Positions 5,546-30,932 of a DNA stretch of 32,000 bases are shown here, one piece after another (the stretch's first letter is position 1; each line of letters starts with the position of its first letter). Source of the DNA: Candidatus Iainarchaeum sp. (lineage in GTDB: Archaea > Iainarchaeota > Iainarchaeia > Iainarchaeales > CSSED10-239); contig JBBISB010000001.1 of the NCBI GenBank assembly GCA_037441475.1, forward strand, positions 246,418 to 278,417, written 5' to 3'. The position numbers and the translations under genes were made by a program. Below the pieces are notes generated by a model, which was not told where the DNA came from, made no database searches, and saw only the letters and a list, made by a program, of their open reading frames with translations.

Positions 5546-6247
5546 TTAATACTCACAACCTTGCCAATAAAGGCTTTCTATTAAGCTACTTATATCGTAG
5601 TTTAATTGAGAATCTATTTTTATAATTAAAATTTGTATATCACAACTATCTTCAACTTGCCCACCAAAAGAAAAGGTTATTCCTCCAAGAAGGAAACCAC
5701 CTTCTGTTGATGGGGTTACTGCCCATAAACTATCTAACCTTTTACCACCAATTATTTTTTCTTTTAATAGATTCCCATTTAAGTCTGTTTTTGCAACATA
5801 AAAATTAGAATAATCATACTCATCATCATACAGATTTCCTTGTCCTCTGCCAAAAATATAATAACCATCAGAAATTCCAAATATTTGGATAGTAGTATCA
5901 TAATTTGAACCAACAAAGGTTTTGTTCCAATCAAGGTTTCCTGAAAAGTCTGTTTTTAAAAGATAAATAATATCCTCTCCGAAAGAATATGTTTGCCCTA
6001 AAACCAAATAACCACCATCAGAGGTTTGCAAAATACTGTTTGGAATTTCTAAAGAGTCCCAGCTTGAGCCACCAAAGGAGTGTGCAAAAAGAGCAGGGGT
6101 TTTTCCAGTAACAATGTTTTTTAAAGGGATATAATAACCATCAGAAGTATATAACTCCATATCAAATTTTCTTTCAACAGGTATTGGAATTGACATTTTT
6201 TGTAATTGATTTCTTTTTATGATTACTGGTGTTTGTAAAGTTTTCAT
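5546..6247 (-). CDS. Beta-propeller-like repeat protein (T/S-DGGY repeats), function unknown
   Basis: Repeated units: 'TSDGYYIPL', 'TSDGGYLVLGQTYSFGEDIIYLLKTDFSGNLDWNKTF', 'ISDGYYIFGRGQG..YVAKTDLNGNLL', 'STEGGFLLGGITFSFGG'. They resemble the 'SDGGYilaG.T.S.G....D.wliKtD..Gn..W' repeat of archaeal surface proteins. The gene starts 5 nt downstream of the pilin gene. Confidence 0.6.
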   Translation of the reverse strand: MKTLQTPVIIKRNQLQKMSIPIPVERKFDMELYTSDGYYIPLKNIVTGKTPALFAHSFGGSSWDSLEIPNSILQTSDGGYLVLGQTYSFGEDIIYLLKTDFSGNLDWNKTFVGSNYDTTIQIFGISDGYYIFGRGQGNLYDDEYDYSNFYVAKTDLNGNLLKEKIIGGKRLDSLWAVTPSTEGGFLLGGITFSFGGQVEDSCDIQILIIKIDSQLNYDISSLIESLYWQGCEY

Positions 6248-8000: not shown

Positions 8001-9371
8001 TTAGTCCTTAAAAGAATCATAAAGGTTATTTATCTTAGAAACAACTTTATCTTGTAAAGATTCTGTATTTTTGTTCAGATCAATTTTGTTTTTCTTAAAC
8101 TCATCTAAAAGATCTATGATTGTTTCATAGGAGTAACCTTTTGAAATTAAGATAAAATAAACCTTATCTTTTGTTAAAGTATCTTTGTAAGGAAGAAAGG
8201 AATTGTATAAGGTTTTTAACATATCCTCATGACTTTCCTTAAGCTCAGAGACATGATGTATCTTATGTACAATCTCAGAAGAGATACTTCTTTCTTCTTC
8301 CTTTGATTGTTTCATTTTAAATTTAATGTTTCTATAATAATCCCAATCAGAGGAATTTATTTTTTCTATAGTCTCTTGAACATCTTTTATCTCATCAATA
8401 TTTTTTTTAAGATCAAGAATCTTTTGGTCAATCTCTTTTATTTGTTTATAAAGAAGGACGATGTTGTCTATAGTTTGACTTACTTCTTCATAAGAGGTTT
8501 TTTCAGTAGTGTTTACAAACTCCTCATTTGCTTGCATAACTAGATCCTTAAGCCCAAAAACACTTACTTGTTTATTATCTAAGATAGATATAACGTCTTG
8601 CTTTCTAATACCTCTTCTTGTTAAAGCAGTAACTGTTTTTTTAATAATGTTTCTTTTTTCTTCTCTCATTTTAAAGAAATCAGAAAGAATATCTTCTTCT
8701 TTTTTTATGCTTTTTTTATTTTCTGTTAATTGCTTTTTATTAATGTTTACAAGGTTTAAGTAAAAGTTTGTTGGAAGCTTTGAGATTAAAACACTTTCAA
8801 AAAGAAAAATTAAAAAGATTATTAAAGAGACTGCAATTGGGAAAAACTTAGTTTCCTTTATAAAGATAAAAAAATCTACTTTTGTTAAAATAAGATAAAC
8901 AATAACAGAGATTAATACTCCTGATAATATTAGGATGTTTTTTGTAAAACTAATGTTTTTAAGTATTAAGTATACCTTTACAGCTGACTCTTTTGTAAAC
9001 CCAACAGTTTTTTGTATAATGTCAATGGACTTTTCTTTTTCAGAAAGATTAAGGTTATAAAAAACCTCTTTAAACCTTCTAACCATTTTTTCAATATTCT
9101 TTTCAGAATCATCAATGTTTATTTTTGTAAGAACTTTTGCAAGATCATTTGGTCTGTTTATGAAGCTATAAAAGAAAGAAGTTGTTTTTGTTGAAAAAAT
9201 ACCAATTAAAAATAAAATACCTAAAATAACTAAGGAAATTATAAAAGAGATGTTGCTTGAAGAACTTTTAAAAACTTCAAAAAAATAAAGTACAGAAAAG
9301 ATTAATGAAGTTAACAAAACACTTAAGATCCAGAAGAAAAATCTACTTTCAAGCCTGTAAGAATAACCCAT
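8001..9371 (-). CDS. Uncharacterised 4-TM membrane protein with C-terminal coiled coil and small helical modules (intact paralogue)
   Basis: 2+2 TM helices are separated by a soluble loop. A conserved 'LPTNFYLNLVNINK' follows TM4. A long K/E/I-rich coiled coil comes next, and the C-terminus is 'LYNSFLPYKD..ISKGYSYETIIDLLDEFKKNKI..VVSKINNLYDSFKD'. It is clearly paralogous to 21603-23019. Confidence 0.75.
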   Translation of the reverse strand: MGYSYRLESRFFFWILSVLLTSLIFSVLYFFEVFKSSSSNISFIISLVILGILFLIGIFSTKTTSFFYSFINRPNDLAKVLTKINIDDSEKNIEKMVRRFKEVFYNLNLSEKEKSIDIIQKTVGFTKESAVKVYLILKNISFTKNILILSGVLISVIVYLILTKVDFFIFIKETKFFPIAVSLIIFLIFLFESVLISKLPTNFYLNLVNINKKQLTENKKSIKKEEDILSDFFKMREEKRNIIKKTVTALTRRGIRKQDVISILDNKQVSVFGLKDLVMQANEEFVNTTEKTSYEEVSQTIDNIVLLYKQIKEIDQKILDLKKNIDEIKDVQETIEKINSSDWDYYRNIKFKMKQSKEEERSISSEIVHKIHHVSELKESHEDMLKTLYNSFLPYKDTLTKDKVYFILISKGYSYETIIDLLDEFKKNKIDLNKNTESLQDKVVSKINNLYDSFKD

Positions 9372-9436
9372 ATCTATTATATATAAGCAGATTAAATTTA
9401 TAAAGCTTTATTATTTATATAAAAAAAAGAAAAAAG

Positions 9437-9511
9437 TGGGAATGGCAGGATTCGAACCTGCGACCTTTGGTGTATAAGACCAATGCTCTAACCAGGCTAA
9501 GCTACACTCCC
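9437..9511 (-). tRNA. tRNA-Ile (anticodon UAU)
   Basis: Manual cloverleaf: GGGAGTG TA GCTT AGCCTGGTTA GAGC A TTGGT CT-TAT-AC ACCAA AGGTC GCAGG TTCGAAT CCTGC CATTCCC A. All four stems pair and no CCA is encoded. Confidence 0.85.
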
Positions 9512-12475: not shown

Positions 12476-12515
12476 AAATTAATCACCCTAAATTATAGAA
12501 AATAGATAATACCAG

Positions 12516-12590
12516 TGGGAATGGCAGGATTCGAACCTGCGACCTCTCGATTATCAGTCGAGTGCTCCAACCAGACTAAGCTACACTCCC
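12516..12590 (-). tRNA. tRNA-Ile (anticodon GAU)
   Basis: GGGAGTG TA GCTT AGTCTGGTTG GAGC A CTCGA CT-GAT-AA TCGAG AGGTC GCAGG TTCGAAT CCTGC CATTCCC A. The cloverleaf is complete. Confidence 0.9.
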
Positions 12591-13092: not shown

Positions 13093-13581
13093 TTATCTAC
13101 TAAACAAATATCTTCTGATCTTGTCTTTAATGATGTTGATGTTATTTAAGTAAACATTTAAAGAAGTTTCAAGTCTGGATGCCTCAAGATTAAACTCTTT
13201 TGCACGTCCAGCTATTAAGTATTCTTCATCTTTTTGTTTTTCAATAACTTCAAGCTCTTTTCTAACAGCAATATATCTCTTAAGAGTCATACTATAATAA
13301 CTATAATTATCTATCATGTCACTATATAACTTTCTTGTAACATCATCCTTATAGATTTGTTTACCTTCAAACATAAATTTACCTTGCTGTCTTGTGCTTG
13401 AATTTTTACCTGAAAAAATATCTGTAATAACAACATAGTGTTGCTCAAGCCAGTCAATAGATTTTGATCTATAGTTTTTTTGTTCAATTTGATTTACTTT
13501 AGGTCTCTTTAATTCAGAGATTACTGACTCATCAATTTCTACAACTTCTGTAACTTTTGTTCTTTTAAATAGTTTAAACAT
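13093..13581 (-). CDS. Hypothetical protein
   Basis: 162-aa ORF with GGTGATGGGAG directly upstream of the ATG. It is the last gene of the gatD-gatE-...-HIT minus-strand string. No motif recognised. Confidence 0.6.
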   Translation of the reverse strand: MFKLFKRTKVTEVVEIDESVISELKRPKVNQIEQKNYRSKSIDWLEQHYVVITDIFSGKNSSTRQQGKFMFEGKQIYKDDVTRKLYSDMIDNYSYYSMTLKRYIAVRKELEVIEKQKDEEYLIAGRAKEFNLEASRLETSLNVYLNNINIIKDKIRRYLFSR

Positions 13582-13698: not shown

Positions 13699-14211
13699 CT
13701 AAAGGTTGAACTTTGTTTTAAGTTTATGCTTCTGTATTAACTCTTTTAGATTCTCTGTAACTTCTTTAGGAGAGATTGAAACTACCTCAAAATTACAAAG
13801 TCTTGGCCATCCAACATCCCCTTTATACCTTGGAAGCACGTGAAAATGAAGGTGATTTATGCTCTCACCAGCAACATTACCTATGTTACATCCTATATTA
13901 TAACCTTCTGGTTTAATATAAAGGTCTAAAGCATAGACTGCAAGATCAATAAGGTTAAAAAATTCCTCTCTTTCCTTAGAGGTAAGCTCTATAATCTGGT
14001 TTACATGCCTTTTAGGAATTACAAGTAACTGCCCTGCTGCATAAGGATATTTATTAGTCTGAATATATGCTTTTTTTGTTGAAAAAATAACATCTTCTTT
14101 TTCTACATTACAAAAAACACATGTTTTTGGGTTATTACTATTCTTTTTATTTTCTGAAGAAAAATATTCCTTTCTCCAAGGTGCATATAAAATATCATGT
14201 TTGTAAGACAT
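13699..14211 (-). CDS. HIT-family nucleotide hydrolase/transferase
   Basis: Histidine triad 'INHLHFHVLPRY', N-terminal 'LYAPWRKEYF', and 'CVFC'. The start overlaps the upstream stop (TAATG). Confidence 0.85.
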   Translation of the reverse strand: MSYKHDILYAPWRKEYFSSENKKNSNNPKTCVFCNVEKEDVIFSTKKAYIQTNKYPYAAGQLLVIPKRHVNQIIELTSKEREEFFNLIDLAVYALDLYIKPEGYNIGCNIGNVAGESINHLHFHVLPRYKGDVGWPRLCNFEVVSISPKEVTENLKELIQKHKLKTKFNL

Positions 14212-14903
14212 TAATATCTACTCTTTAATTTTTCAAAAATATAGAAAAGTATGAAAGTAAATAACATTAATAAGAAATACTTTGTAAAAGTTAAAAATAT
14301 TAAATAAAGAACATACATACCGCTTGAGATACCATGCAAAAGATAATAACTCTTCATAAAGGCAAAGTAATTAATGGATAAAAGTAAGCTTTCAAGAAAA
14401 AATAAAGACAAAGAAAGATTAATTACAGACTTAAAGAAATTATTTAAAGAAACACTTATTCTTGAGGCCTCGTATGCAAATAAGAAATACACAAACAAGA
14501 AAACAATAATGAATAAGAAATTATACCAAAAATAATAACTTGTAAAATTAGAATAATAGACAACTAAAGCAGGAGCTATAGAAAAGACTGCAAGCTTTAT
14601 TAAGAAATTACAAAAAATTACAAAAACTAATATTGAAAATAGAAATAAAAGATAATCAAAATAACTATTAAAAGTAAGCTTCTCCTCAATCCTTTTTTTA
14701 AAAGTTTGTTTTGAGAGATTTTGTTGTAAGGAAACTTCTTTACTTAAAGATGTTTTTACAGGAAGTTTGTTTACAGAAGTTTTTTTTAGAGGAAGTTCTT
14801 TTTTTACAGGAAGAGTTTTTTTAAAAGAAGTTTTCTTTAAAGGAATTTCTTTTTTAAAAACAACTTTCTTTTTTGTAATAGGTTTCTTTTTAATAGCATC
14901 CAT
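14211..14903 (-). CDS. Membrane protein with Lys-rich tandem-repeat N-terminus
   Basis: The N-terminus has two ~17-aa repeats, 'EIPLKKTSFKKTLPVKK / ELPLKKTSVNKLPVKTS', followed by about five hydrophobic helices. Confidence 0.65.
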   Translation of the reverse strand: MDAIKKKPITKKKVVFKKEIPLKKTSFKKTLPVKKELPLKKTSVNKLPVKTSLSKEVSLQQNLSKQTFKKRIEEKLTFNSYFDYLLFLFSILVFVIFCNFLIKLAVFSIAPALVVYYSNFTSYYFWYNFLFIIVFLFVYFLFAYEASRISVSLNNFFKSVINLSLSLFFLESLLLSINYFAFMKSYYLLHGISSGMYVLYLIFLTFTKYFLLMLFTFILFYIFEKLKSRY

Positions 14904-14934: not shown

Positions 14935-16866
14935 TTAAATAGATTTGTTTTTTTCTAAAAAATAATTTAACTGCTCTTTAAGGGAAAGAGAGATTACTTT
15001 TCCATCATATTTATTTTCTGTCTTTGCCATTACCCTACCCATTATAAGGCCTACAGCTCTCTCTCTTTGTTTTAAGACAGCATCTTTATTTTCTAAAATA
15101 ACCTCATTTATTATTTTCTTTAAGTCATCTAAAGAAACCTCTTCCTTTTTATTTTCTAAGATTATCTTAGAAAGCAAAAGTGGTTCTTTTACATACTCTA
15201 TGAAAATATCTAAAAGCTTATTTATAGATATTTTTTCAAATAAATCCTTAAAAGAAAAGAAGTTATACAAAAGAGAATCTGTGACATCATCTAAATCTAT
15301 TCTATCATCTCTTGAGGCCTTTATTAAATCTTCAAGTAAAAAGACAGCCAAGGTGGTTGGGTTAATTTTATGCTCGTTTACAATCTTTTCAAAAATAGGA
15401 GCATAGTTACTTAATACCATTTTTTCTGAAAGCTGAGAGCTTATCTTAAAAGTATCTAAATATAGTTTTCTTCTCTTTTCAATAGTTAAAGGAATTTCTT
15501 GTTTAGCTAAAGAAATAACATCCTCTGTAAGGGGTATAGGAGAAAGATCAGTCTCAGGATACATTCTTGAGGAAGTGGAAAGTGGTCTTTGATACTCTGT
15601 GTTACCTTCAGGAGTAGAAGCTCTTGTTTCTTTTAAAACTCCTAAGAATAATTTATTAAGCCTATCTTCAATAACACTTCTCACAGACTCAATCTCTGCT
15701 TCTGAAGAAAAGACTATTATGAAAGAGTCTTCTTCTTTTAAAGAAAAATTACTCTTGATTAAAGAAATCTCTTTATCTGTTATACCGTAGTTAGGGAGCT
15801 CATCTAAATGGAATAAACCCTTTAAAGAGGTCCTTACCTTTAAAACACTTGCAATCTCAGTTCCAAGTCTTCTGTTTGGTTGAATCTCTCTTCCTAAAAA
15901 ACCTTTAAAAGAAGGAAGTATGAAAAGATAAGCATGCTTTTTTTCTTTAAAAGCATTGTTTACAACCTTTGAGTATGTTTCTTTAAATAAAGAATCAACT
16001 TGGTTTGTGCTTAAAGAAAAATGTGTAATATTCTTTTCTAAAAGTTTGTTTTTAATATCAATTAAGTTAAGTTGACGAACAATTTCTCTATTTATAATTT
16101 CAGGAATTAAATCTAACTCCTGACAACCCTTAATCTCAACTCTTGCACCCTCTCTTATAGAGATGTTAATGTCTTGCCTTATAGATCCAAGTCCTCTTTT
16201 TGTTTTACCAGTAGACCTAAACAACTGTCCAAGAAACAAAGCAACTTTTTTAACATCCTCAGGAGTATGCATGTCATGCCATGCAACAAGCTCAATTAAT
16301 GGAAAACCTAATCTATCTAAAGAATAAATAACCTCATCCTCTTTTCTCTCTAAAGCCCTTGCAGCATCCTCCTCTAAAAGAATCTTGTCTATCCTCACTC
16401 TTCCAAAATCAAAATCTAAATAACCATCAGTTGAGATCATGGTAGTTCTCTGGAAACCAGAAACATTAGAACCATCTACAACCTGTTTTCTCATAATGTG
16501 AGAGGTATTAACAACAGTTGAGTTGGTTAGAAAAGAAATTACTAAAGCTATTCTTAGAGCCTCTTGGTTGATGTTAAAAGGAGGTTGAGAATCTGATTCT
16601 ACTAAACAATTACAGGAGTTATAAAAATAATATTTAAAAAGTTTATTTTTATTTTGTTCTTCCTTAGCTGTTAAATCAATAGAACCTGTTTCTGAAGATA
16701 CTGCTCTTAATCTTCTTTCAATTATTTTATCAGGCTTTGTTTCATCCTTAATAAGTTTTGAAGGACAGTTACAAAATAACTTGTTTGTGTTTAACTGTTG
16801 ATGAAGCTCAAGACCACACATAAGCCCAAGAGATTTATAATCAAGGTTATTAATATCAATTTTCAT
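14935..16866 (-). CDS. gatE: Glutamyl-tRNA(Gln) amidotransferase subunit E
   Basis: 'LGLMCGLELHQQLNTNKLFCNCPS' and full GatE length (643 aa), immediately downstream of gatD. Confidence 0.95.
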   Translation of the reverse strand: MKIDINNLDYKSLGLMCGLELHQQLNTNKLFCNCPSKLIKDETKPDKIIERRLRAVSSETGSIDLTAKEEQNKNKLFKYYFYNSCNCLVESDSQPPFNINQEALRIALVISFLTNSTVVNTSHIMRKQVVDGSNVSGFQRTTMISTDGYLDFDFGRVRIDKILLEEDAARALERKEDEVIYSLDRLGFPLIELVAWHDMHTPEDVKKVALFLGQLFRSTGKTKRGLGSIRQDINISIREGARVEIKGCQELDLIPEIINREIVRQLNLIDIKNKLLEKNITHFSLSTNQVDSLFKETYSKVVNNAFKEKKHAYLFILPSFKGFLGREIQPNRRLGTEIASVLKVRTSLKGLFHLDELPNYGITDKEISLIKSNFSLKEEDSFIIVFSSEAEIESVRSVIEDRLNKLFLGVLKETRASTPEGNTEYQRPLSTSSRMYPETDLSPIPLTEDVISLAKQEIPLTIEKRRKLYLDTFKISSQLSEKMVLSNYAPIFEKIVNEHKINPTTLAVFLLEDLIKASRDDRIDLDDVTDSLLYNFFSFKDLFEKISINKLLDIFIEYVKEPLLLSKIILENKKEEVSLDDLKKIINEVILENKDAVLKQRERAVGLIMGRVMAKTENKYDGKVISLSLKEQLNYFLEKNKSI

Positions 16867-16886
16867 ACATTACCATTTATATAATT

Positions 16887-18230
16887 TTAAAAAACTAAAT
16901 CATAAGAAGAAGGAACTTCTTTTGGTGAAATTTCTCCAGCTATGTTTCTTTTAAGATACTCAATAATATCTTTCTTTTGTTTAAATCTTTTTAAAGCAAC
17001 ACCTAACTTTATTTGCATAACTTCAGGTAAAGCATCATGCCCGTCTAAATATTCAACCCCTGCATTTGAGAGATATCTTAAATTAGCATAAACCTTTCCA
17101 TTAACTCTTCCAAACAAACATTGAGAGGTCATGATAACAATTATTCCTTTTTCAATTGCTTTTTTTAAAAATGGAATAAACTGATATTCTTCAGGAAGTC
17201 TTTCTTTGTTTTCCTCACCAGTAGGAACATGCCCTAAACCAGTTCCCTCTAAGATTATTCCTTTATAGCTTTTCTGTATATACCATTCAACTATTAAAGG
17301 ATCTATGTTTGGATGCACCTTTATTAAAGCAACCTTCTCTTCATACTCTTTATAAAGAACAGGTTTTTCATTTAAGAGTGTTTGTGGTTTTTTAAAAAGA
17401 TATTCAACATCTCCTTTAGAAAAAACTTTGCATAAGAAATTATCATTAACAGCTTTAAAGGCATCTCTTCTAGAGGTGTGCATTTTTCTTGACTTAACAG
17501 CTTTAATCACTGTACAAAAATCATCATTTATTGAACCGTGCATAACAGTAAAGACACCAGGAACTTTTTCTTTAATAAAGCTTGCTGCACATATAAGGTT
17601 TAAAGAACCATCAAAGCTTGCTCTATCAGGAGATTTCTGTGCCCCAACTAAAAGAACTGGTTTGTTTATATTTTCAATCATGAAGGAAAGAGCAGAACCT
17701 GTAAAGCTTAAGGTGTCTGTTCCATGTGTTATTATTATACCATCAACTTCTTTATCATTAAGGTGTGTGAAAACAATTTCAGCTAATTTTTGCCAATCTT
17801 TGTAATAGATGTCTTCAGATGCCTTTATGTAAGGAGACTCTATTTTTGTGATGTTAACTATATTTTCAAGCTCAGGAGTGGTTGAGATTATCTCCTCAGG
17901 GGTTCTACACATTGTAACACCACCAGTAACATAATCAACATGTGTACCTATTGTTCCACCTGTGCCTATATACACAATATTTGGAAGAGCTTTATTTGCT
18001 TTTAGAGGTTTTGAGGGTATTTTTCCTAAACTTACCTTTTCTTCACATATTATTAATTCTTTTATTTCTTTTTTAAAAACACTTATATTATAACCATTAT
18101 CTAAAAGTTTTAATTTTAAAGAATCAGGAGATATTTCAACAAGGTATCCTTTATAGAGAATACTTTTGTTTCCATCTACTCTTGTAATTTCAAGAACCTT
18201 ACCAATATCATTTATTGTTACATCATTCAT
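16887..18230 (-). CDS. gatD: Glutamyl-tRNA(Gln) amidotransferase subunit D (asparaginase-like)
   Basis: 'IGTGGTIGTHVDYVTGGV', 'ITHGTDTLSFTGSALSFM', 'VGAQKSPDRASFDGSLNL'. GTGAT lies upstream of the ATG. Confidence 0.95.
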   Translation of the reverse strand: MNDVTINDIGKVLEITRVDGNKSILYKGYLVEISPDSLKLKLLDNGYNISVFKKEIKELIICEEKVSLGKIPSKPLKANKALPNIVYIGTGGTIGTHVDYVTGGVTMCRTPEEIISTTPELENIVNITKIESPYIKASEDIYYKDWQKLAEIVFTHLNDKEVDGIIITHGTDTLSFTGSALSFMIENINKPVLLVGAQKSPDRASFDGSLNLICAASFIKEKVPGVFTVMHGSINDDFCTVIKAVKSRKMHTSRRDAFKAVNDNFLCKVFSKGDVEYLFKKPQTLLNEKPVLYKEYEEKVALIKVHPNIDPLIVEWYIQKSYKGIILEGTGLGHVPTGEENKERLPEEYQFIPFLKKAIEKGIIVIMTSQCLFGRVNGKVYANLRYLSNAGVEYLDGHDALPEVMQIKLGVALKRFKQKKDIIEYLKRNIAGEISPKEVPSSYDLVF

Positions 18231-18844: not shown

Positions 18845-18932
18845 TTAAATTATATTGATTATTAGATTATTTTTCCTCTTATATATTATATAATCTATGT
18901 GTTTAAATAATTTACTATATACTATACATATT

Positions 18933-20318
18933 ATGCATAAAACAATAATTCCTATCCTACATGATATTAAAAAATATCTTGAAATTAAAAAGCTAGACTA
19001 CTTTGAAATCAGGTATGAAAACCATGATAGAAGAGTTATAAATGTTGAAAACTTAGATACTAAGGACCTATTAGAGAATAATAACCAAGGGATTGGTATA
19101 AGGGTACTTGTAGATAAGAAAGTTGGTTTTTTATCTTTAAATAACTTTGAAGAGTATAGGTCAAAGATTGATAGATTAATTGAAAATACTAAAAAAACTA
19201 ATAAAAAAACAGAAATGAATAATTTTTCAAAAATAAAAGATAAAGATATTGTAAAACATAAGGACTTTAACGAAGTGGATAACTCAACAAAGATTAAAGA
19301 GCTTATTAAAGTTAACAAAGAACTTCTTAGTAAAGAAGATAACATAAAGATACTTAACTCAGATATTATTAAGCAAGAAATAACTACTGAAAAATACTTT
19401 TTAACAAAAGAAGCTGAGATATACCAAAAAAGACCATACTCTATTATATTCTCACTAATGACTGCTAAAAAAGATAACAAGATAGAATCAAATTTAACAA
19501 GGATAGGAAACCTTGGTGGTCTTGAAAAATATTCTGTGCAGGATATTGAAAAACTACTTTTATCAAATAAAAATAAATTAAAAGAACTTTTTGAATCAAA
19601 GGCATGCCCTGCTATTAAGTCTGATATAATCCTACATCCAAATGTTGCTGATCTTTTAGCACATGAAGCTATTGGACATGCTTGTGAAGCTGACTTTCTA
19701 TTAGATAATACAACAGTTCTTAAAAAAGGATTAAAGATATCTATAAACAAGGAAGTAAATGTTACTGACAACCCAGAGATAAGAGAGTTTGGATACTTTA
19801 AGTATGATGATGAAGGAATAAAGGCAAGAAAAACAGAGCTTATAAAAAAAGGGGTTGTAAATGACTTTATGACAAACATAGAGTCTGCAACAAAACTTAA
19901 AACTAAATCAAATGGATCTGCAAGAGCTGAAAATTATAACCAGTTTCCAGTAGTAAGAATGAGTAACACTTATTTTGAAGAAGGAAAACATAAGATAGAA
20001 GATATGCTTAAAAACTTCAATGGATATCTTTTAAGTGGTTTTTCAGGCGGACAGGTTGAAACAAATGTAGGTACTTTTATGTTTGGTATAAAGCAAGCTT
20101 ACAAGTATAAGAATGGAGAGATTGCTGAAAAATATAAACAAGCTTCAATTTCAGGAAACATCTTAACATACTTAAATAACATTACAGAGATCTCAAATAA
20201 AAAAGATAAGTTTGAGATTGGTTTTTGTGGAAAGAGTGGACAAACTGCCTTTGTAGGTGGAGCAGGCCCATACATTAAAGTAAAAGATGCAATTATTGGT
20301 GGAACTAAACATGAATAA
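18933..20318 (+). CDS. tldD: TldD-family metalloprotease
   Basis: 'HEAIGHACEAD' matches the TldD HExxGHxxExD motif, with 'GFCGKSGQ' near the C-terminus. The start is set at the second ATG (18933), because the TATA-like run ends at 18896. Confidence 0.85.
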   Translation: MHKTIIPILHDIKKYLEIKKLDYFEIRYENHDRRVINVENLDTKDLLENNNQGIGIRVLVDKKVGFLSLNNFEEYRSKIDRLIENTKKTNKKTEMNNFSKIKDKDIVKHKDFNEVDNSTKIKELIKVNKELLSKEDNIKILNSDIIKQEITTEKYFLTKEAEIYQKRPYSIIFSLMTAKKDNKIESNLTRIGNLGGLEKYSVQDIEKLLLSNKNKLKELFESKACPAIKSDIILHPNVADLLAHEAIGHACEADFLLDNTTVLKKGLKISINKEVNVTDNPEIREFGYFKYDDEGIKARKTELIKKGVVNDFMTNIESATKLKTKSNGSARAENYNQFPVVRMSNTYFEEGKHKIEDMLKNFNGYLLSGFSGGQVETNVGTFMFGIKQAYKYKNGEIAEKYKQASISGNILTYLNNITEISNKKDKFEIGFCGKSGQTAFVGGAGPYIKVKDAIIGGTKHE

Positions 20319-21600
20319 AGAAGAAATTTATAAGTTTTGTAAAAAGATTACAGAAAAAGAAAAAATTGATTTTAAGTATATTCAATCAGAGAGTGAAGAA
20401 ATAAACTTAAATAGATTTTCAATAGAGAACTACTATCAGAATATTAGTGAAAGATTATTTATTAGGGTAATTGATAAAAACAGCATAGGGACATACAGTA
20501 TACAGGATATTAGAAAAGAAAAGATACTTGAAGGTATTAAAAAAGCAAAAGAGATTGCTAAGTTAAAAAAATCAACTATCAAGTACACTGATTTTGGAGA
20601 TTTTAAAAGTAAACAAAAAATTAAGTTTGATACTAAGATATCAGAGGTTAAATTTTCAGATATTTTAAGCAAGGTTAAAGAAAATCTTACAAAAGATAAA
20701 ACAGTGGTAGGATATATTGGTGGAGTATCAAAAGTTAACCTTAAGTCATTTTATATAAATAACAATACAGAGAAGGAAGAAGAAAAAAGCTATATCTTCC
20801 AAGAAACAGGAGTCTTGACAAAAAATATAAAAAAATCCTCAGGAGACTTTTCAAGCACCTACACAAGAGTTGAGGATATTGATATTAATAGTAATTTTTT
20901 GCAAGCTAAGATAAATGCACAAAACCTCTTAGATCCAGAGAAAGGAAGTAAAGGAGAATATACTTTAATCCTAACACCTGGGGTTACAAAAGAGCTTATA
21001 TCGTTTATACTTAGTGGAACAACAGGAGATATTATTGAAAAGAAAAAATCTTTCTTACATGAACATATGGGAAAACAAGTTTTTTCTAAAAACCTAAATA
21101 TTGTTGAAGACCCACACATTGATTATTTTTTAAAATCACAAACAATTGATGATGAAGGAATAAAGACTACTCAAAAAGAAATTATCAAAGAAGGGGTTTT
21201 TACAAAACCAATTTATGATTTATACAGTTCCATAAAATACAATAAAAAAGCAACTGGGAATGGTTTTTTATCAAATAACTACTCCTCAAGCTACACTAAT
21301 ATTATACAAGAAGCAGGCAGTAAAAAAATAGAAGATGTTATTGATAAGACTAAAAAAGGGGTCTTAGTTTACCAAATATTAGGGTTTCATACAAACAAAA
21401 TGTCAGATGGTAACTTTGCATTGACAATTTCTGCAGGAAAAGAGATAATTAATGGTAAATATGTAAAGACAATAACAAACCTTAACTTTTCTGGAAATTT
21501 AAAAGATATTCTAAAAGAAGTTTATTTTTCAAAAGAACAACAATTTTTTGGATCTTCACTTTACAGCTTTACAGTACTTCCAAACATTAAATTAATATAG
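20311..21600 (+). CDS. pmbA: PmbA/TldE-family protein (TldD partner)
   Basis: About 430 aa, translationally coupled to tldD by an ATGAATAA overlap. TldD/PmbA-type C-terminal region, no HExxxH, as expected for PmbA. Confidence 0.75.
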   Translation: MNKEEIYKFCKKITEKEKIDFKYIQSESEEINLNRFSIENYYQNISERLFIRVIDKNSIGTYSIQDIRKEKILEGIKKAKEIAKLKKSTIKYTDFGDFKSKQKIKFDTKISEVKFSDILSKVKENLTKDKTVVGYIGGVSKVNLKSFYINNNTEKEEEKSYIFQETGVLTKNIKKSSGDFSSTYTRVEDIDINSNFLQAKINAQNLLDPEKGSKGEYTLILTPGVTKELISFILSGTTGDIIEKKKSFLHEHMGKQVFSKNLNIVEDPHIDYFLKSQTIDDEGIKTTQKEIIKEGVFTKPIYDLYSSIKYNKKATGNGFLSNNYSSSYTNIIQEAGSKKIEDVIDKTKKGVLVYQILGFHTNKMSDGNFALTISAGKEIINGKYVKTITNLNFSGNLKDILKEVYFSKEQQFFGSSLYSFTVLPNIKLI

Positions 21601-27741: not shown

Positions 27742-29193
27742 ATGGAACAACTATATTTAATCGAGTGTATTTATGAGAACGATAAACAAAGGGTAGTGAG
27801 CTTATTTTCAAAAGATCCTTACAGCAATAAATGTGACTTTACTTTCAAAGAAAGGTTTAACCCTTATTTCTATATTGACCTGCCAAAGGAACTTTTAAGC
27901 AAACTTTTATCTGATTTTAGAAAGGAGATTAAGATAGAAAAGATTTCCTCTGAAAAGATAAAGATTACAGCTAGAGATAAAGAAACCTTAGATAAGGTAT
28001 ACAAGGTAATCTCCTTTTCAACAGATAAAAACATCCTTTTAATAGAGAGTGAAAGACAATATTTAATAGAGAAGGAATGGAGTTATTATGACCTTTTTTT
28101 AATTATTTCTCAAAACAGAATAAAAAAAATTGAAAATAACAATGTAAGCTCAGTTGTTAGAAAGTATATAAGTCCTTTTTTAAAAGAGGAACAATTAAGA
28201 CTTATTGAAAAATTAACCAAAAAGCTTTTGTTAAGTAATCTTTTAAAAGTAAACCCAGCAAGTGTTAATAATCAAGAGATACTTAACACCTTGTTTGAAA
28301 ATCTATTTTTTAAAAACAAACTAGTTTTAAGTAATAAATCAAAAGTAGAATATTTAGAAAAAGAAAAAAACATTAAAGAAGGTATTAAAATGGATTTCTC
28401 AAACATCTGGCCATACCTTCTAACCAAAGACTTTTACAACCTGGGGCATGACTCCATTAACTGTGAATGTTGCATACCAAAGAACCATTTAGAGGTAAAT
28501 GTCCTTTCAAACTCCTTAGTTGAAGTTGTTTTTAAAAAGCAAGGTTATTACTTTATATCAAAGGACAGAGAATGGGGTTATAAGTATAATTTAGAGAACG
28601 AAGAAAAAGAAAATAGATTAAAATTTATGAAAAATAATTATCTTAAAGAAATTCCAGTAGGACCTTTCTATAAAGATCAAAAAGCAAAGATTCCTCTTTT
28701 AGATGCATTTAACCTTCTTTTAGAAGATGATAAAACCCTTACAAAAGATTATTCCTATCTTAAATGGTTCTGTCTTAAAGAAGAATCATACTTATCAAAG
28801 ATAATTAAAGAATATTTAAAGAAATTAAAAAATATTGAAACATTCATTAACCTAAGCACCTCAATTACCTACAACTCCTCTTTTAAAAATAAAAATGAAC
28901 TAGAGAACAACCCTCTCTTCATTCAGTACCTTACAGAGTATAAGCTAATAAATGATTTAATAGAGGAGATACCAAGGTTTATGGAGCATAGAAACACTAA
29001 GTTTTATGACCCTGTAATCTCTCAGGCAATTAAATATCTAAAACTTGAGATGGTTGAAAGAATAGATGTTGATAACAAAAGATATTTAATAGATAAGGAA
29101 AAAGTAATTGTTAAAGAAAAAAAGTTTATTGAAAAAGTAAACAACTATTTTCCACAAATAAACCTACCTATACCAAGGCTTATCTTAAATTAA
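27742..29193 (+). CDS. Truncated, degenerate family-B DNA-polymerase-like protein
   Basis: Ordered by-eye matches to archaeal PolB landmarks: 'RFNPYFYIDL', 'ERQYLIEKEW', 'LNTLFENLFFKNKLVLSNK', 'KMDFSNIWPYLL...DSINCECC', 'YLSKIIKEYLKKLK'. The exonuclease, motif B/C and thumb are not recognisable. Confidence 0.6.
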   Translation: MEQLYLIECIYENDKQRVVSLFSKDPYSNKCDFTFKERFNPYFYIDLPKELLSKLLSDFRKEIKIEKISSEKIKITARDKETLDKVYKVISFSTDKNILLIESERQYLIEKEWSYYDLFLIISQNRIKKIENNNVSSVVRKYISPFLKEEQLRLIEKLTKKLLLSNLLKVNPASVNNQEILNTLFENLFFKNKLVLSNKSKVEYLEKEKNIKEGIKMDFSNIWPYLLTKDFYNLGHDSINCECCIPKNHLEVNVLSNSLVEVVFKKQGYYFISKDREWGYKYNLENEEKENRLKFMKNNYLKEIPVGPFYKDQKAKIPLLDAFNLLLEDDKTLTKDYSYLKWFCLKEESYLSKIIKEYLKKLKNIETFINLSTSITYNSSFKNKNELENNPLFIQYLTEYKLINDLIEEIPRFMEHRNTKFYDPVISQAIKYLKLEMVERIDVDNKRYLIDKEKVIVKEKKFIEKVNNYFPQINLPIPRLILN

Positions 29194-29593: not shown

Positions 29594-30808
29594 CTATTTG
29601 TTTATTTTTTCATCAATCTTTTTTAAAGAAAAAATAAATTTATCAATCTCTTCAAAGGTATTATAGAAATAAAAAGAGGCTCTTGAAAGACCATTTTTAT
29701 CAAACCTTGTAACAATTGGTTCAGCACAATGTACACCTGCCCTTGTTGCGATGTTTGACATGTCATCTAAAACAGCAGAAAGATCACTTGCATCAATTCC
29801 CTTAAGCCTAAACAAAAGTATTGGAGATTGTAATTTTTCATCTAAAGGATTAAACAGTTCAAGATTATCAATACTCTTTACCTTTTCAATAGCATACTTT
29901 AAAAGAGCCTTATCTTGTTTCTCTATGTTTGTAATTCCTACTCTTGAAAGATAATCAATGGCAGAAGATAAACCAAAGACACCAGAGATGTTTGGAGTTC
30001 CAGCCTCAAACTTGTAAGGAACATTGTTTGTTGTAAAGGAAGTTGTAGATACATTTTTTATCATATCCCCTCCAAACCTGAATGGTTCTTGAGACTCTAA
30101 ATTTTTTTTCTTTGCTATTAAACACCCAATGCCTGTTGGTCCAAGCATCTTATGCCCTGTGAAAACTAAATAATCACAATCTAGAGATTTAAAATCAAGT
30201 TTCATATGAGGAGCAGATTGAGAGGCATCAATCAAGGTTCTAGCTTTGTATTTCTTAGCTATGTTAATTATTTCTTTAATAGGTACAATGGTTCCTGTGG
30301 TGTTTGAAACATGTGTTATGGCTATTAGTTTTGTTTTTTCAGATATTTTTTTTTTAAAATCATCCAGGTCTAATGTAAAATTTTCTTTAATATCTACAAA
30401 CTTTAAAGTTAAACCAATCTTTTTAGATAAAAAAAGCCAAGGAACAAGGTTTGCATGATGTTCTAAAATTGAAACTAAGATTTCATCTCCTTTCTTAAAA
30501 TAATCTGAGTTGTAAAGAGAGTACATTACAAGGTTTATAGCATCTGTACTGTTTTGACAGAAAACTACCTCTTCTTCCTTAGAGTTTACAAACTTAGAGA
30601 CCTTTTCTCTACATCCTTCATAGATAACAGAGGCTATCATAGATAGCTTATGTATCCCTCTATGTATGTTAACAGGGTACTCTAAGTAATACCTGTTAAT
30701 ACCTTCAATAACCTCTCTTGGTTTTAAGGAAGACGCTGCATTATCAAAATAGATTACTTTATTTCCCTTTAAAACACTGAAGTCTTCTCTTAACTTTATA
30801 AAATCCAT
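29594..30808 (-). CDS. sufS: Cysteine desulfurase, SufS/CsdA type (class V aminotransferase)
   Basis: 'YFDNAASS', 'HHANLVPW', 'THVSNTTG', PLP-Lys 'FTGHKMLGPTGIG', and active-site 'RAGVHCAEP'. The start is set at ATG 30808, because the upstream 18 nt look like a TATA box. Confidence 0.9.
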   Translation of the reverse strand: MDFIKLREDFSVLKGNKVIYFDNAASSLKPREVIEGINRYYLEYPVNIHRGIHKLSMIASVIYEGCREKVSKFVNSKEEEVVFCQNSTDAINLVMYSLYNSDYFKKGDEILVSILEHHANLVPWLFLSKKIGLTLKFVDIKENFTLDLDDFKKKISEKTKLIAITHVSNTTGTIVPIKEIINIAKKYKARTLIDASQSAPHMKLDFKSLDCDYLVFTGHKMLGPTGIGCLIAKKKNLESQEPFRFGGDMIKNVSTTSFTTNNVPYKFEAGTPNISGVFGLSSAIDYLSRVGITNIEKQDKALLKYAIEKVKSIDNLELFNPLDEKLQSPILLFRLKGIDASDLSAVLDDMSNIATRAGVHCAEPIVTRFDKNGLSRASFYFYNTFEEIDKFIFSLKKIDEKINK

Positions 30809-30932
30809 ACATATAATATAATACAATTATTTTAAATAGATTTTTATATGATAAATATATTAGATAAGACACTAATATTTATTAGAAAAATAAAGCCTTT
30901 AAAGAAAATTACTTCTTTTCTGAAAATAAAGA

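Follow-up and report, generated by a model that had tools for sequence, protein, structure and literature searches.

The mini-PolB locus

The gene described here lies in a 32,000-nucleotide stretch of DNA from Candidatus (Ca.) Iainarchaeum sp. (contig JBBISB010000001.1, positions 246,418 to 278,417; the whole stretch is called the window below), the GC content of which is low, at about 23-33% per 1-kb window. In the ORF listing of this stretch, the open reading frame (ORF) extends from an ATG at 27742 to 29193 on the forward strand and encodes 483 amino acids (aa) plus a stop codon. Its product is a reduced homologue of the family-B DNA polymerases (PolB), here termed mini-PolB. An initial annotation, made from the sequence without database searches, had described it as a miniaturised PolB homologue that lacks the exonuclease and thumb, has degenerate catalytic motifs and is not a product of assembly truncation. 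The last of these points stands, as the ORF ends at a clean stop and faces a convergent alba gene, and because the window lies inside a 671-kb contig the ORF is not cut by the assembly. The convergent gene, 9 nt past the end of the mini-PolB ORF, encodes a 96-aa Alba protein (PF01918; 29203..29493, reverse strand). The peptides quoted in the initial annotation are all located in the 483-aa translation, at the following residues:

Residues 37-50: ERFNPYFYIDLPKE
Residues 103-113: SERQYLIEKEW
Residues 116-122: YDLFLII
Residues 181-199: LNTLFENLFFKNKLVLSNK
Residues 216-244: KMDFSNIWPYLLTKDFYNLGHDSINCECC
Residues 350-363: YLSKIIKEYLKKLK
Residues 369-381: INLSTSITYNSSF
Residues 441-445: IDVDN

The ORF and the domains and motifs assigned within it, with the evidence for each in brackets, are:

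27742..29193, forward strand: complete ORF of the reduced family-B polymerase homologue mini-PolB (ORF call, AlphaFold2, Foldseek, dN/dS)
27742..28077, forward strand: PolB N-terminal domain, residues 1-112 (model secondary structure, weak hhalign matches)
28078..28140, forward strand: exonuclease vestige, WSYYD-x-F plus one beta-hairpin, residues 113-133 (model, conservation)
28141..28380, forward strand: helical region, comprising the rest of the N-terminal domain and the pre-palm helix (LFEN), residues 134-213 (model)
28381..28449, forward strand: motif A region, K-M-D218-F-S-N-I-W-P-Y-L-L...N233-L-G235, residues 214-236 (hhalign, NF004418)
28462..28479, forward strand: Cys triad C241-x-C243-C244-x-P246 (conservation, hhalign motif A match)
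28480..28764, forward strand: inserted palm domain between motif A and the fingers, residues 247-341 (alignment, model)
28657..28743, forward strand: likely GINS B-domain-like core of the insertion, residues 306-334, VGPFYKDQKAKIPLLDAFNLLLEDDKTLT (Pfam recurrence, Foldseek, shuffle test)
28765..28773, forward strand: W342-F-C344, with the fourth invariant Cys, at the junction with the first finger helix (conservation, hhalign)
28789..28986, forward strand: fingers-like long helices without motif B residues, residues 350-415 (model, hhalign)
28993..29007, forward strand: NTKFY, residues 418-422, counterpart of the PolB (A/S)RWY after motif B (alignment to Pol2 GSRWY)
29086..29112, forward strand: beta-hairpin at the motif C position, LIDKEKVIV, residues 449-457 (model, alignment to Pol2 LELDTDGIW)
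29122..29190, forward strand: last palm helix and strand, residues 461-483 (model)

Similarity to family-B DNA polymerases

Searches of Pfam, NCBIfam and the PDB sequences returned no match above threshold for mini-PolB, either with the query alone or with a 25-sequence profile. The query matches neither PF00136 or PF03104 nor the NCBIfam models PRK05761 and PRK05762, and in family members the PolB matches are sub-threshold, at about 10 bits against curated cut-offs of about 700. Searches of the same three collections with family profiles likewise gave nothing significant, leaving the recurrence of weak matches across family members as the one informative signal. Mini-PolB is therefore taken to be a relative of PolB because of its structural matches, direct sequence searches having failed. 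An AlphaFold2 model built on the family alignment (mean pLDDT 87.3, pTM 0.86, no segment below 50) gave 158 Foldseek matches to the PDB at E<=1e-3, and all 50 listed matches are family-B polymerases, with a probability of 1.0 and TM-scores normalised to the query of 0.33-0.52. The best of these is Pyrobaculum PolB (5mdn_A, E=6.4e-8), while Saccharolobus PolB1 (1s5j) reaches a TM-score of 0.52 on the query, and E. coli Pol II and Pol epsilon are also represented. In the viral structure library BFVD, most matches are again PolBs, and the named ones in the top 50 are DNA polymerases except for one uncharacterized Solivirus protein. The PolB homology that the initial annotation had proposed is thus borne out by a significant structural match.

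Weak sequence similarities were examined in 88 diverse family members (19-47% identity to the reference member P0030), in which the NCBIfam PolB models gave 18 weak matches and each unrelated family matched once. One of these models, NF004418 ('type B DNA-directed DNA polymerase'), weakly matches 11 of the 88 members and does so at motif A, placing protein residues ~220-257 on profile positions 334-370 of 717, and a weak match of member P0052 to the Pol II profile (508-555) covers the stretch leading into motif C. Comparison with a Thermococcales PolB profile, which is shallow (Neff 1.5) as the homologue search returned Thermococcales only, failed in the global mode of hhalign; the local mode gave colinear but weak matches, the best of which pairs residues 204-245 of a 116-member family profile with residues 391-430 of Pfu PolB, at motif A (P=1.3e-3). 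The Pfu sequence used matches its database entry at 100% identity. Other pairs are colinear and individually non-significant, namely F39-x-P41-YFY (FxPYFY) with Pfu FRPYIY and, against Pol epsilon, fingers with fingers, NTKFY with GSRWY, and the hairpin at 449-456 with LELDTDGIW. The resemblance of mini-PolB to PolB is more than chance.

Compared to archaeal PolB1 and PolB3 (for example, the enzymes of Pyrococcus, Thermococcus, Pyrobaculum and Saccharolobus; PDB 5mdn, 4fm2 and 1s5j), mini-PolB has the same N-terminal domain, palm and fingers fold, with the landmarks in colinear order: FxPYFY, ERQ(F/Y)L, the motif A stretch DFSxxWPxLL...N.G.(E/D)T.NC, (W/K)FC ahead of the fingers, (T/R)(K/W)(F/Y)Y following motif B, and a hairpin at motif C. 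It differs from these enzymes in being about 290 residues shorter, with the exonuclease reduced to a hairpin and with the thumb and KxY region absent, in being without motifs B and C and having a motif A Asp that is not invariant, and in the addition of a palm insertion of ~100 aa and a four-Cys site (Cys4). The N-terminal domain is modelled as a beta-sheet (3-45), a beta-beta-alpha unit (63-94) and a helix (103-111) carrying ERQYL, and its residues F39, P41, R105 and L108 are at least 95% conserved; this and all other conservation figures are from 116 full-length members. It is followed by helices at 135-143, 148-168 and 177-191, in which E186 is 91% and N187 86% conserved, and colinearity suggests the assignment of these helices to the remainder of the N-terminal domain and the pre-palm helix.

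Loss of the exonuclease, thumb and catalytic motifs

The exonuclease domain is indeed missing from mini-PolB, where only a ~20-residue hairpin (118-131, with modelled strands at 118-123 and 126-131) follows YYDxF, and counterparts of ExoII and ExoIII are absent by both the model and the conservation pattern. Judging from colinearity with AFDIET of Pfu PolB, D117 (87% conserved) would occupy the position of the ExoI Asp, and F119 (98%) would replace the ExoI Glu. The thumb is missing too, as the protein stops right after the palm and has no KxY region; past the motif C hairpin there are only a helix (461-472) and a strand (479-481) in the 26 residues to the C-terminus, and all full-length relatives share the same C-terminal end point.

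Motifs B and C are degenerate, as initially described, but each had been placed about 10-30 residues from its actual equivalent. The counterpart of motif B is found not at INLSTSITYNSSF but at about 403-413 (INDLIEEIPRF), which NTKFY then follows, and motif C corresponds not to IDVDN but to the hairpin at 449-457 (LIDKEKVIV), with modelled strands at 449-451 and 454-457; neither of the two candidate stretches is conserved. Over the 116 members, the motif B equivalent has no conserved K, N, S, Y or G, and the columns of the motif C turn (450-454) have no conserved acidic residue. The finger-like helices that surround motif B are modelled at 350-379, 381-388 and 391-415 and align to the fingers of Pol2 at P=0.066, and in NTKFY F421 is 80% conserved while position 422 is Y in 56/116 members and F in 41/116. 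Even the motif A column is variable: at the position of D218, 90 of the 116 members have Asp, 16 have Asn, 3 have Ser and 2 have Glu. An exonuclease domain, a thumb and intact motifs B and C are missing from every one of these full-length relatives, and the alternative that the window copy is a local pseudogene of an intact enzyme was accordingly not borne out.

Conservation peaks instead at the Cys4 site and the insertion, and not at the catalytic cleft. Because the Cys4 site is invariant while the motif A, B and C columns vary, selection is taken to act on the Cys4 site and the insertion and not on a polymerase active site. Since the exonuclease, motif B, motif C and thumb are all wanting and curated thresholds are not reached, mini-PolB does not count as an active PolB; it is almost certainly non-catalytic, with the two-metal polymerase site gone. 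The structural or regulatory role suggested in the initial annotation is consistent with these domain losses and degenerate motifs. An active minimal DNA polymerase that uses a non-canonical active site, for example in short-patch repair synthesis after resection, is a very unlikely alternative. Such an enzyme would suit the genomic context described below, motif A is still recognisable, with its Asp present in 78% of members including the window copy, and in PolB2/G2 and primer-independent PolBs one Asp in motif C is sufficient (PMC7544198). However, that motif A Asp is replaced by N or S in 19/116 members, the motif C turn is without an acidic residue, the Lys, Asn and Tyr of motif B are missing, as are the KxY region and a thumb that could hold a duplex, and the most conserved positions lie away from the catalytic cleft.

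An invariant Cys site flanking a palm insertion

The initial annotation, the reading of which is otherwise supported, overlooked the invariant Cys4 site, the ~100-aa insertion with its GINS-B-like core, and a phylum-wide synteny with nurA-herA and rad50, and it is these three features that point to the function of mini-PolB. The Cys triad C241, C243 and C244 lies about 25 residues after motif A and, together with C344, flanks residues 247-341. These four Cys and G307 are 100% conserved, followed by P41, L108, R292 and P308 at 99%, D321, W342 and F119 at 98%, N253 at 97% and H283 at 95%, and the triad is also invariant in the sets labelled A3 and A4. Within the insertion, an alpha/beta domain, the near-invariant residues are N253, H283 (N in the window copy), R292, G307, P308 and D321. 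The CxCC...C arrangement is a putative metal site, for Zn or Fe-S, at the base of the inserted domain.

The triad falls inside the hhalign motif A match, the end of which aligns with the EGC428 region of Pfu PolB. Furthermore, WFC344 is paired with KFC442 of Pfu PolB and C344 with C763 of yeast Pol2 in colinear hhalign alignments, none of which is significant alone. Where mini-PolB has its ~100-aa insertion, C428 and C442 of Thermococcales PolB are separated by a hairpin of only some 13 residues, and these two Cys form a disulfide in the Thermococcales enzymes.

A comparable arrangement is found in Pol epsilon, where the CysX residues of yeast Pol2 (C665/C668/C677/C763) bind a [4Fe-4S] cluster and a domain of 85-100 aa is inserted in the palm (PMC6582351). 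The CysX/P-domain of Pol epsilon and mini-PolB have the same topology, with three Cys after motif A, a palm insertion, and a fourth Cys before the fingers, but differ in the spacing of the Cys, which is CxCC in mini-PolB and Cx2Cx8C in Pol2. Homology of the insertion to the P-domain was considered and is not detectable, with only the topology in common: hhalign comparison with 120 Pol epsilon fragments gave no alignment covering residues 245-343 against Pol2 678-762, and no Pol epsilon chain is among the top 50 Foldseek matches of the isolated insertion. The CysX-like arrangement of mini-PolB is most likely convergent, or else marks a common insertion hot-spot. CysX and the P-domain have been considered to be present only in Pol epsilon, and no metal-binding domain was known in archaeal PolBs at the time of a 2020 survey (PMC7544198).

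Overall, mini-PolB is most like the known inactivated PolB modules, but is far more reduced. Among these modules are PolEpsilonC (Pfam DUF1744), which lies in the C-terminal half of Pol epsilon in eukaryotes, and, in Euryarchaeota, the inactivated paralogues reportedly described by Rogozin et al. in Biol Direct in 2008. PolEpsilonC and the euryarchaeal paralogues are, like mini-PolB, instances of a PolB fold under selection without its catalytic residues and with a presumed structural role. They keep the full set of exonuclease, polymerase and thumb, whereas mini-PolB lost two of five domains; unlike them, mini-PolB has acquired an insertion with a putative metal site, and it is linked to repair and not to replication genes.

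Probable similarity of the insertion to the GINS B-domain

When modelled alone, the insertion has a pLDDT of 84.7, and most of its top Foldseek matches are GINS chains, matched through their B-domain with probabilities of up to 0.94 and E>=0.16. The matched chains include Saccharolobus GINS (9moj), those of the human, yeast, worm and frog CMG, and T. kodakarensis Gins51C (5ghr), the last with a TM-score of 0.69-0.72 on the target. In Pfam scans of 85 insertion sequences, PSF2_N (PF25005) matches 12 (best E 5.7e-4) and Gins51_C (PF22090) matches 3, with no other family matching more than 2. The motif GPFxxGxxxxxPLxDAxxL, the most conserved of the family, aligns without gaps to residues 33-61 of human PSF2, GPFNPGLPVEVPLWLAINL, with a score of 9.0 bits as compared to a maximum of 5.1 in 2000 shuffles (0/2000 reach it); the human sequence used is 100% identical to 2e9x_B. 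Reverse searches of the PDB with family profile hidden Markov models (HMMs) did not reach any GINS. It is likely, if unproven, that the core of the insertion is similar to the GINS B-domain. It differs from that domain in being embedded in a polymerase palm and not attached to a GINS A-domain, and in having an extra helical hairpin (276-298) and Cys flanks.

This similarity bears on the idea that mini-PolB is a scaffold of the replisome, which would link the helicase (MCM/GINS/GAN) to the true polymerase much as PolEpsilonC does, with the insertion mimicking or replacing a GINS B-domain contact and with the herA, nurA and rad50 synteny described below being incidental. There is a precedent for such a role in PolEpsilonC, an essential inactive PolB module that binds the CMG helicase (PMC7544198), and the B-domain of archaeal Gins51 is a docking module for GAN/RecJ and for the PolD subunit DP1 (PMC9023282). 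Recurrent weak matches to DUF1744 point the same way, but are found in just 2 of the 88 members and at E>=0.018. A scaffold of this kind is nonetheless an unlikely explanation for mini-PolB, in view of the neighbouring genes considered below.

Distribution of mini-PolB and evidence for selection

A word-indexed search retrieved 31 relatives of mini-PolB, nearly all of 481-492 aa, and an exhaustive profile search 169 clusters at 50% identity, the full-length members of which are 455-546 aa long, with none of PolB size. The gene is present in 71 genomes in a scan of the GTDB species representatives, including the complete Forterrea chromosome, and the proteins are mostly basic (median pI 8.6). 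All but one of the named carriers are Ca. Iainarchaeum, 'ainarchaeum' or Ca. Forterrea, so that among named records the family is almost confined to Iainarchaeota. The exception is a contig labelled 'Thaumarchaeota archaeon' (locus L074, JAGVNS010000122.1), which has an nurA-herA-miniPolB-rad50 block of the Iainarchaeota type and probably is a mis-binned or mislabelled contig of a metagenome-assembled genome. No prior description of the family was found in the literature, nor is it among the six PolB clusters in the 2020 survey (PMC7544198).

Comparison of the window gene with a 94%-identical homologue gives a dN/dS of 0.08 (dS 0.34). Because lengths are uniform across the family and dN/dS is this low, the reduced size is regarded as ancestral and maintained. 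That the ORF is a pseudogene or gene remnant in decay, that it belongs to a mobile element or a defence system, or that the fold match is false is barely credible. In favour of these readings, there is no curated family match, and defence systems too include HerA-type ATPases, with the HerA encoded next to mini-PolB matching the PADLOC HerA models. A pseudogene is excluded, however, by the low dN/dS, the uniform length and the invariant residues of 116 full-length members from a family found in 71 genomes, and structure and sequence independently indicate PolB. An origin in a mobile element or defence system is unsupported, as no relatives were found on viral contigs, PADLOC gives no match for mini-PolB or NurA, and the gene has a fixed chromosomal context of housekeeping genes.

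Linkage to nurA, herA and rad50

ORFs were called in the 71 loci and clustered, and the recurrent clusters were annotated. HerA is encoded in 56/71 loci, mostly 1-3 genes upstream of mini-PolB and on the same strand, NurA in 42/71, further upstream on the same strand, and Rad50 in 47/71, 1-4 genes downstream and convergent. The usual order is nurA, often a gene for a HAD hydrolase, herA, mini-PolB and, in some cases, rpoK/S17e, with rad50, aEF-1beta and CCA on the opposite strand, and in 24 loci the gap between the herA stop and the mini-PolB start is at most 184 bp. These neighbours bear directly on a replisome role for mini-PolB. The query clade keeps the gene without herA linkage, which would favour such a role, but HerA, Rad50 and NurA are the strongest and most frequent neighbours, and no MCM, GINS, PolD, PCNA or primase is found among the recurrent neighbours of the 71 loci.

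In thermophilic archaea, herA, mre11, rad50 and nurA are found in one operon (PMC7776575). The Iainarchaeota cluster likewise brings together nurA, herA and rad50, but is without mre11, has mini-PolB between herA and rad50, and often has an added HAD gene. The gene upstream of rad50 is that for aEF-1beta, not mre11, and no Mre11-like ORF was found within 10 kb of the 71 loci, either among the intervening ORFs or by phmmer, a motif regular expression and tblastn in about 1.1 Mb of flanking sequence, in a search that used a single, database-unchecked Pfu probe and had no positive control among these loci. Mini-PolB itself has no match to Metallophos, the profile of the calcineurin-like phosphoesterases with their DxH, GDxxD and GNH[DE] motifs, and is no Mre11 homologue; only its genomic position is Mre11-like.

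One interpretation of this arrangement is that mre11 was lost and that mini-PolB replaced it as the DNA-end-recognising partner of Rad50 and/or HerA-NurA, perhaps by means of a novel nuclease site or of an Fe-S cluster with redox activity. Consistent with replacement are the position of the gene between herA and rad50, in a cluster that carries mre11 in thermophiles, the outcome of the Mre11 search with aEF-1beta found in its stead, and a set of nearly invariant polar residues, E104, R105, D117, N253, H283, R292 and D321. Pfam and NCBIfam scans, however, give no phosphoesterase or other known nuclease signature, the Mre11 search is subject to the limits of its single probe, and the role of an added subunit would explain the synteny equally well. 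Replacement, a stronger version of the reading favoured below, is accordingly quite improbable.

Several neighbours of mini-PolB have features of their own. The Rad50 of Iainarchaeota is short, with a median of 684 aa in the 47 loci (for example, L056, 6454-8508, reverse strand), and keeps the zinc hook. In at least 14 Iainarchaeota loci (such as L029, L031, L032, L034 and L035), the gene for the HAD-superfamily hydrolase (PF00702/PF13419) separates nurA from herA and has the same orientation as both; it may be another unrecognised member of the cluster. In the lineage of member P0025 (L003, L004 and L005, 10508-13012, forward strand), the HerA (DUF87) gene encodes 834 aa that include an intein with a LAGLIDADG endonuclease. 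A class-V aminotransferase/cysteine-desulfurase-like gene (PF00266; 23 loci) is found within a few genes of mini-PolB in both types of synteny, two genes downstream in the query clade (window 29594-30826, reverse strand) and upstream of nurA in others; this neighbour may matter if the Cys4 site binds Fe-S, or may be merely inherited synteny.

Other features of the window

The window encodes a tRNA-Ile with anticodon TAT (UAU) at 9436-9511 on the reverse strand, as predicted by ARAGORN, besides a tRNA-Ile(GAT) at 12515-12590. In most archaea AUA is read by a modified CAU tRNA, and a genomically encoded UAU tRNA-Ile is uncommon. Two adjacent, overlapping genes of the TldD/PmbA family (18897-20318 and 20287-21600, both forward strand) adjoin a GtrA-like gene and a GatD/GatE pair (14935-18230), an ordinary housekeeping context that is unrelated to mini-PolB. 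Four ORFs on the reverse strand have no Pfam match at E<=1e-3, namely 5546-6247 (233 aa), 8001-9371 (456 aa), 13093-13581 (162 aa) and 14211-14903 (230 aa), which fits the high fraction of orphan proteins in Ca. Forterrea (PMC5905446).

A proposed role in DNA-end processing

The fold, the loss of domains and of catalytic residues, the invariance of the Cys4 site, the action of purifying selection and the conserved gene order are all observed, and on these grounds we propose, with moderate confidence, that mini-PolB is a radically reduced, inactive PolB derivative that serves as a non-catalytic scaffold in the machinery for DNA-end processing and recombination. That it binds a metal and DNA, and which partner and pathway it would serve, are inferred. 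The dead, mostly basic PolB body would bind a DNA end or a single-strand/duplex junction, the Cys4 site would clamp the base of the insertion, and the insertion would dock a partner protein, candidates for which are HerA-NurA, Rad50, or a nuclease of the RecJ/GAN type. A complex with HerA-NurA and/or Rad50 could then act in end resection and recombination. Homologous recombination in Ca. Forterrea has been inferred from population data (PMC5905446).

A number of observations weigh against a scaffold role in end processing. The linkage is absent where the gene was first noted, as the window, loci L001 and L002 and the Forterrea-type loci, all of the query sub-clade, contain no herA, nurA or rad50. 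In the related locus L012, herA is found some 4.6 kb downstream of mini-PolB and nurA some 6 kb upstream of it; in the sub-clade of the query, the block is rearranged and the linkage lost. Synteny in small, rarely rearranged genomes can also be inherited without a functional link, and the housekeeping genes rpoK, S17e and aEF-1beta are part of the same block. The GINS likeness of the insertion is sub-threshold in every single test, with Foldseek E-values of at least 0.16, Pfam matches below the gathering score and negative reverse HMM searches. Finally, D218 is still Asp in most members, leaving room for residual chemistry.

A more specific and decidedly tentative form of the scaffold proposal, less probable than the proposal itself, is that a PolB has been exapted in Iainarchaeota as a non-catalytic metal-cluster subunit of a HerA-NurA/Rad50 resection machine, where it would stand in for Mre11 in genomic position and possibly also in function, with the GINS-B-like insertion, clamped by the Cys4 site and a possible [4Fe-4S] cluster, serving as a docking or sensing element. 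Mini-PolB is the first case we could find that combines a Cys cluster where Pol epsilon has CysX, a palm that carries a GINS-B-like module, and linkage to nurA, herA and rad50 with no mre11 found nearby. If the exaptation is real, archaea would have a parallel to the CysX/P-domain arrangement, which at present is considered to be exclusive to Pol epsilon.

With this assignment, a fold is given to an orphan family that is conserved across an archaeal phylum and has so far been annotated as hypothetical. Mini-PolB shows how far the body of a replicative polymerase can shrink under strong selection, with two of five domains lost and the active site erased. If the functional link to herA, nurA and rad50 is real, the family would also offer a natural experiment on what an Fe-S or Cys site does where it flanks a palm insertion at its base, and a testable entry into DNA-end processing in the genome-reduced DPANN archaea.

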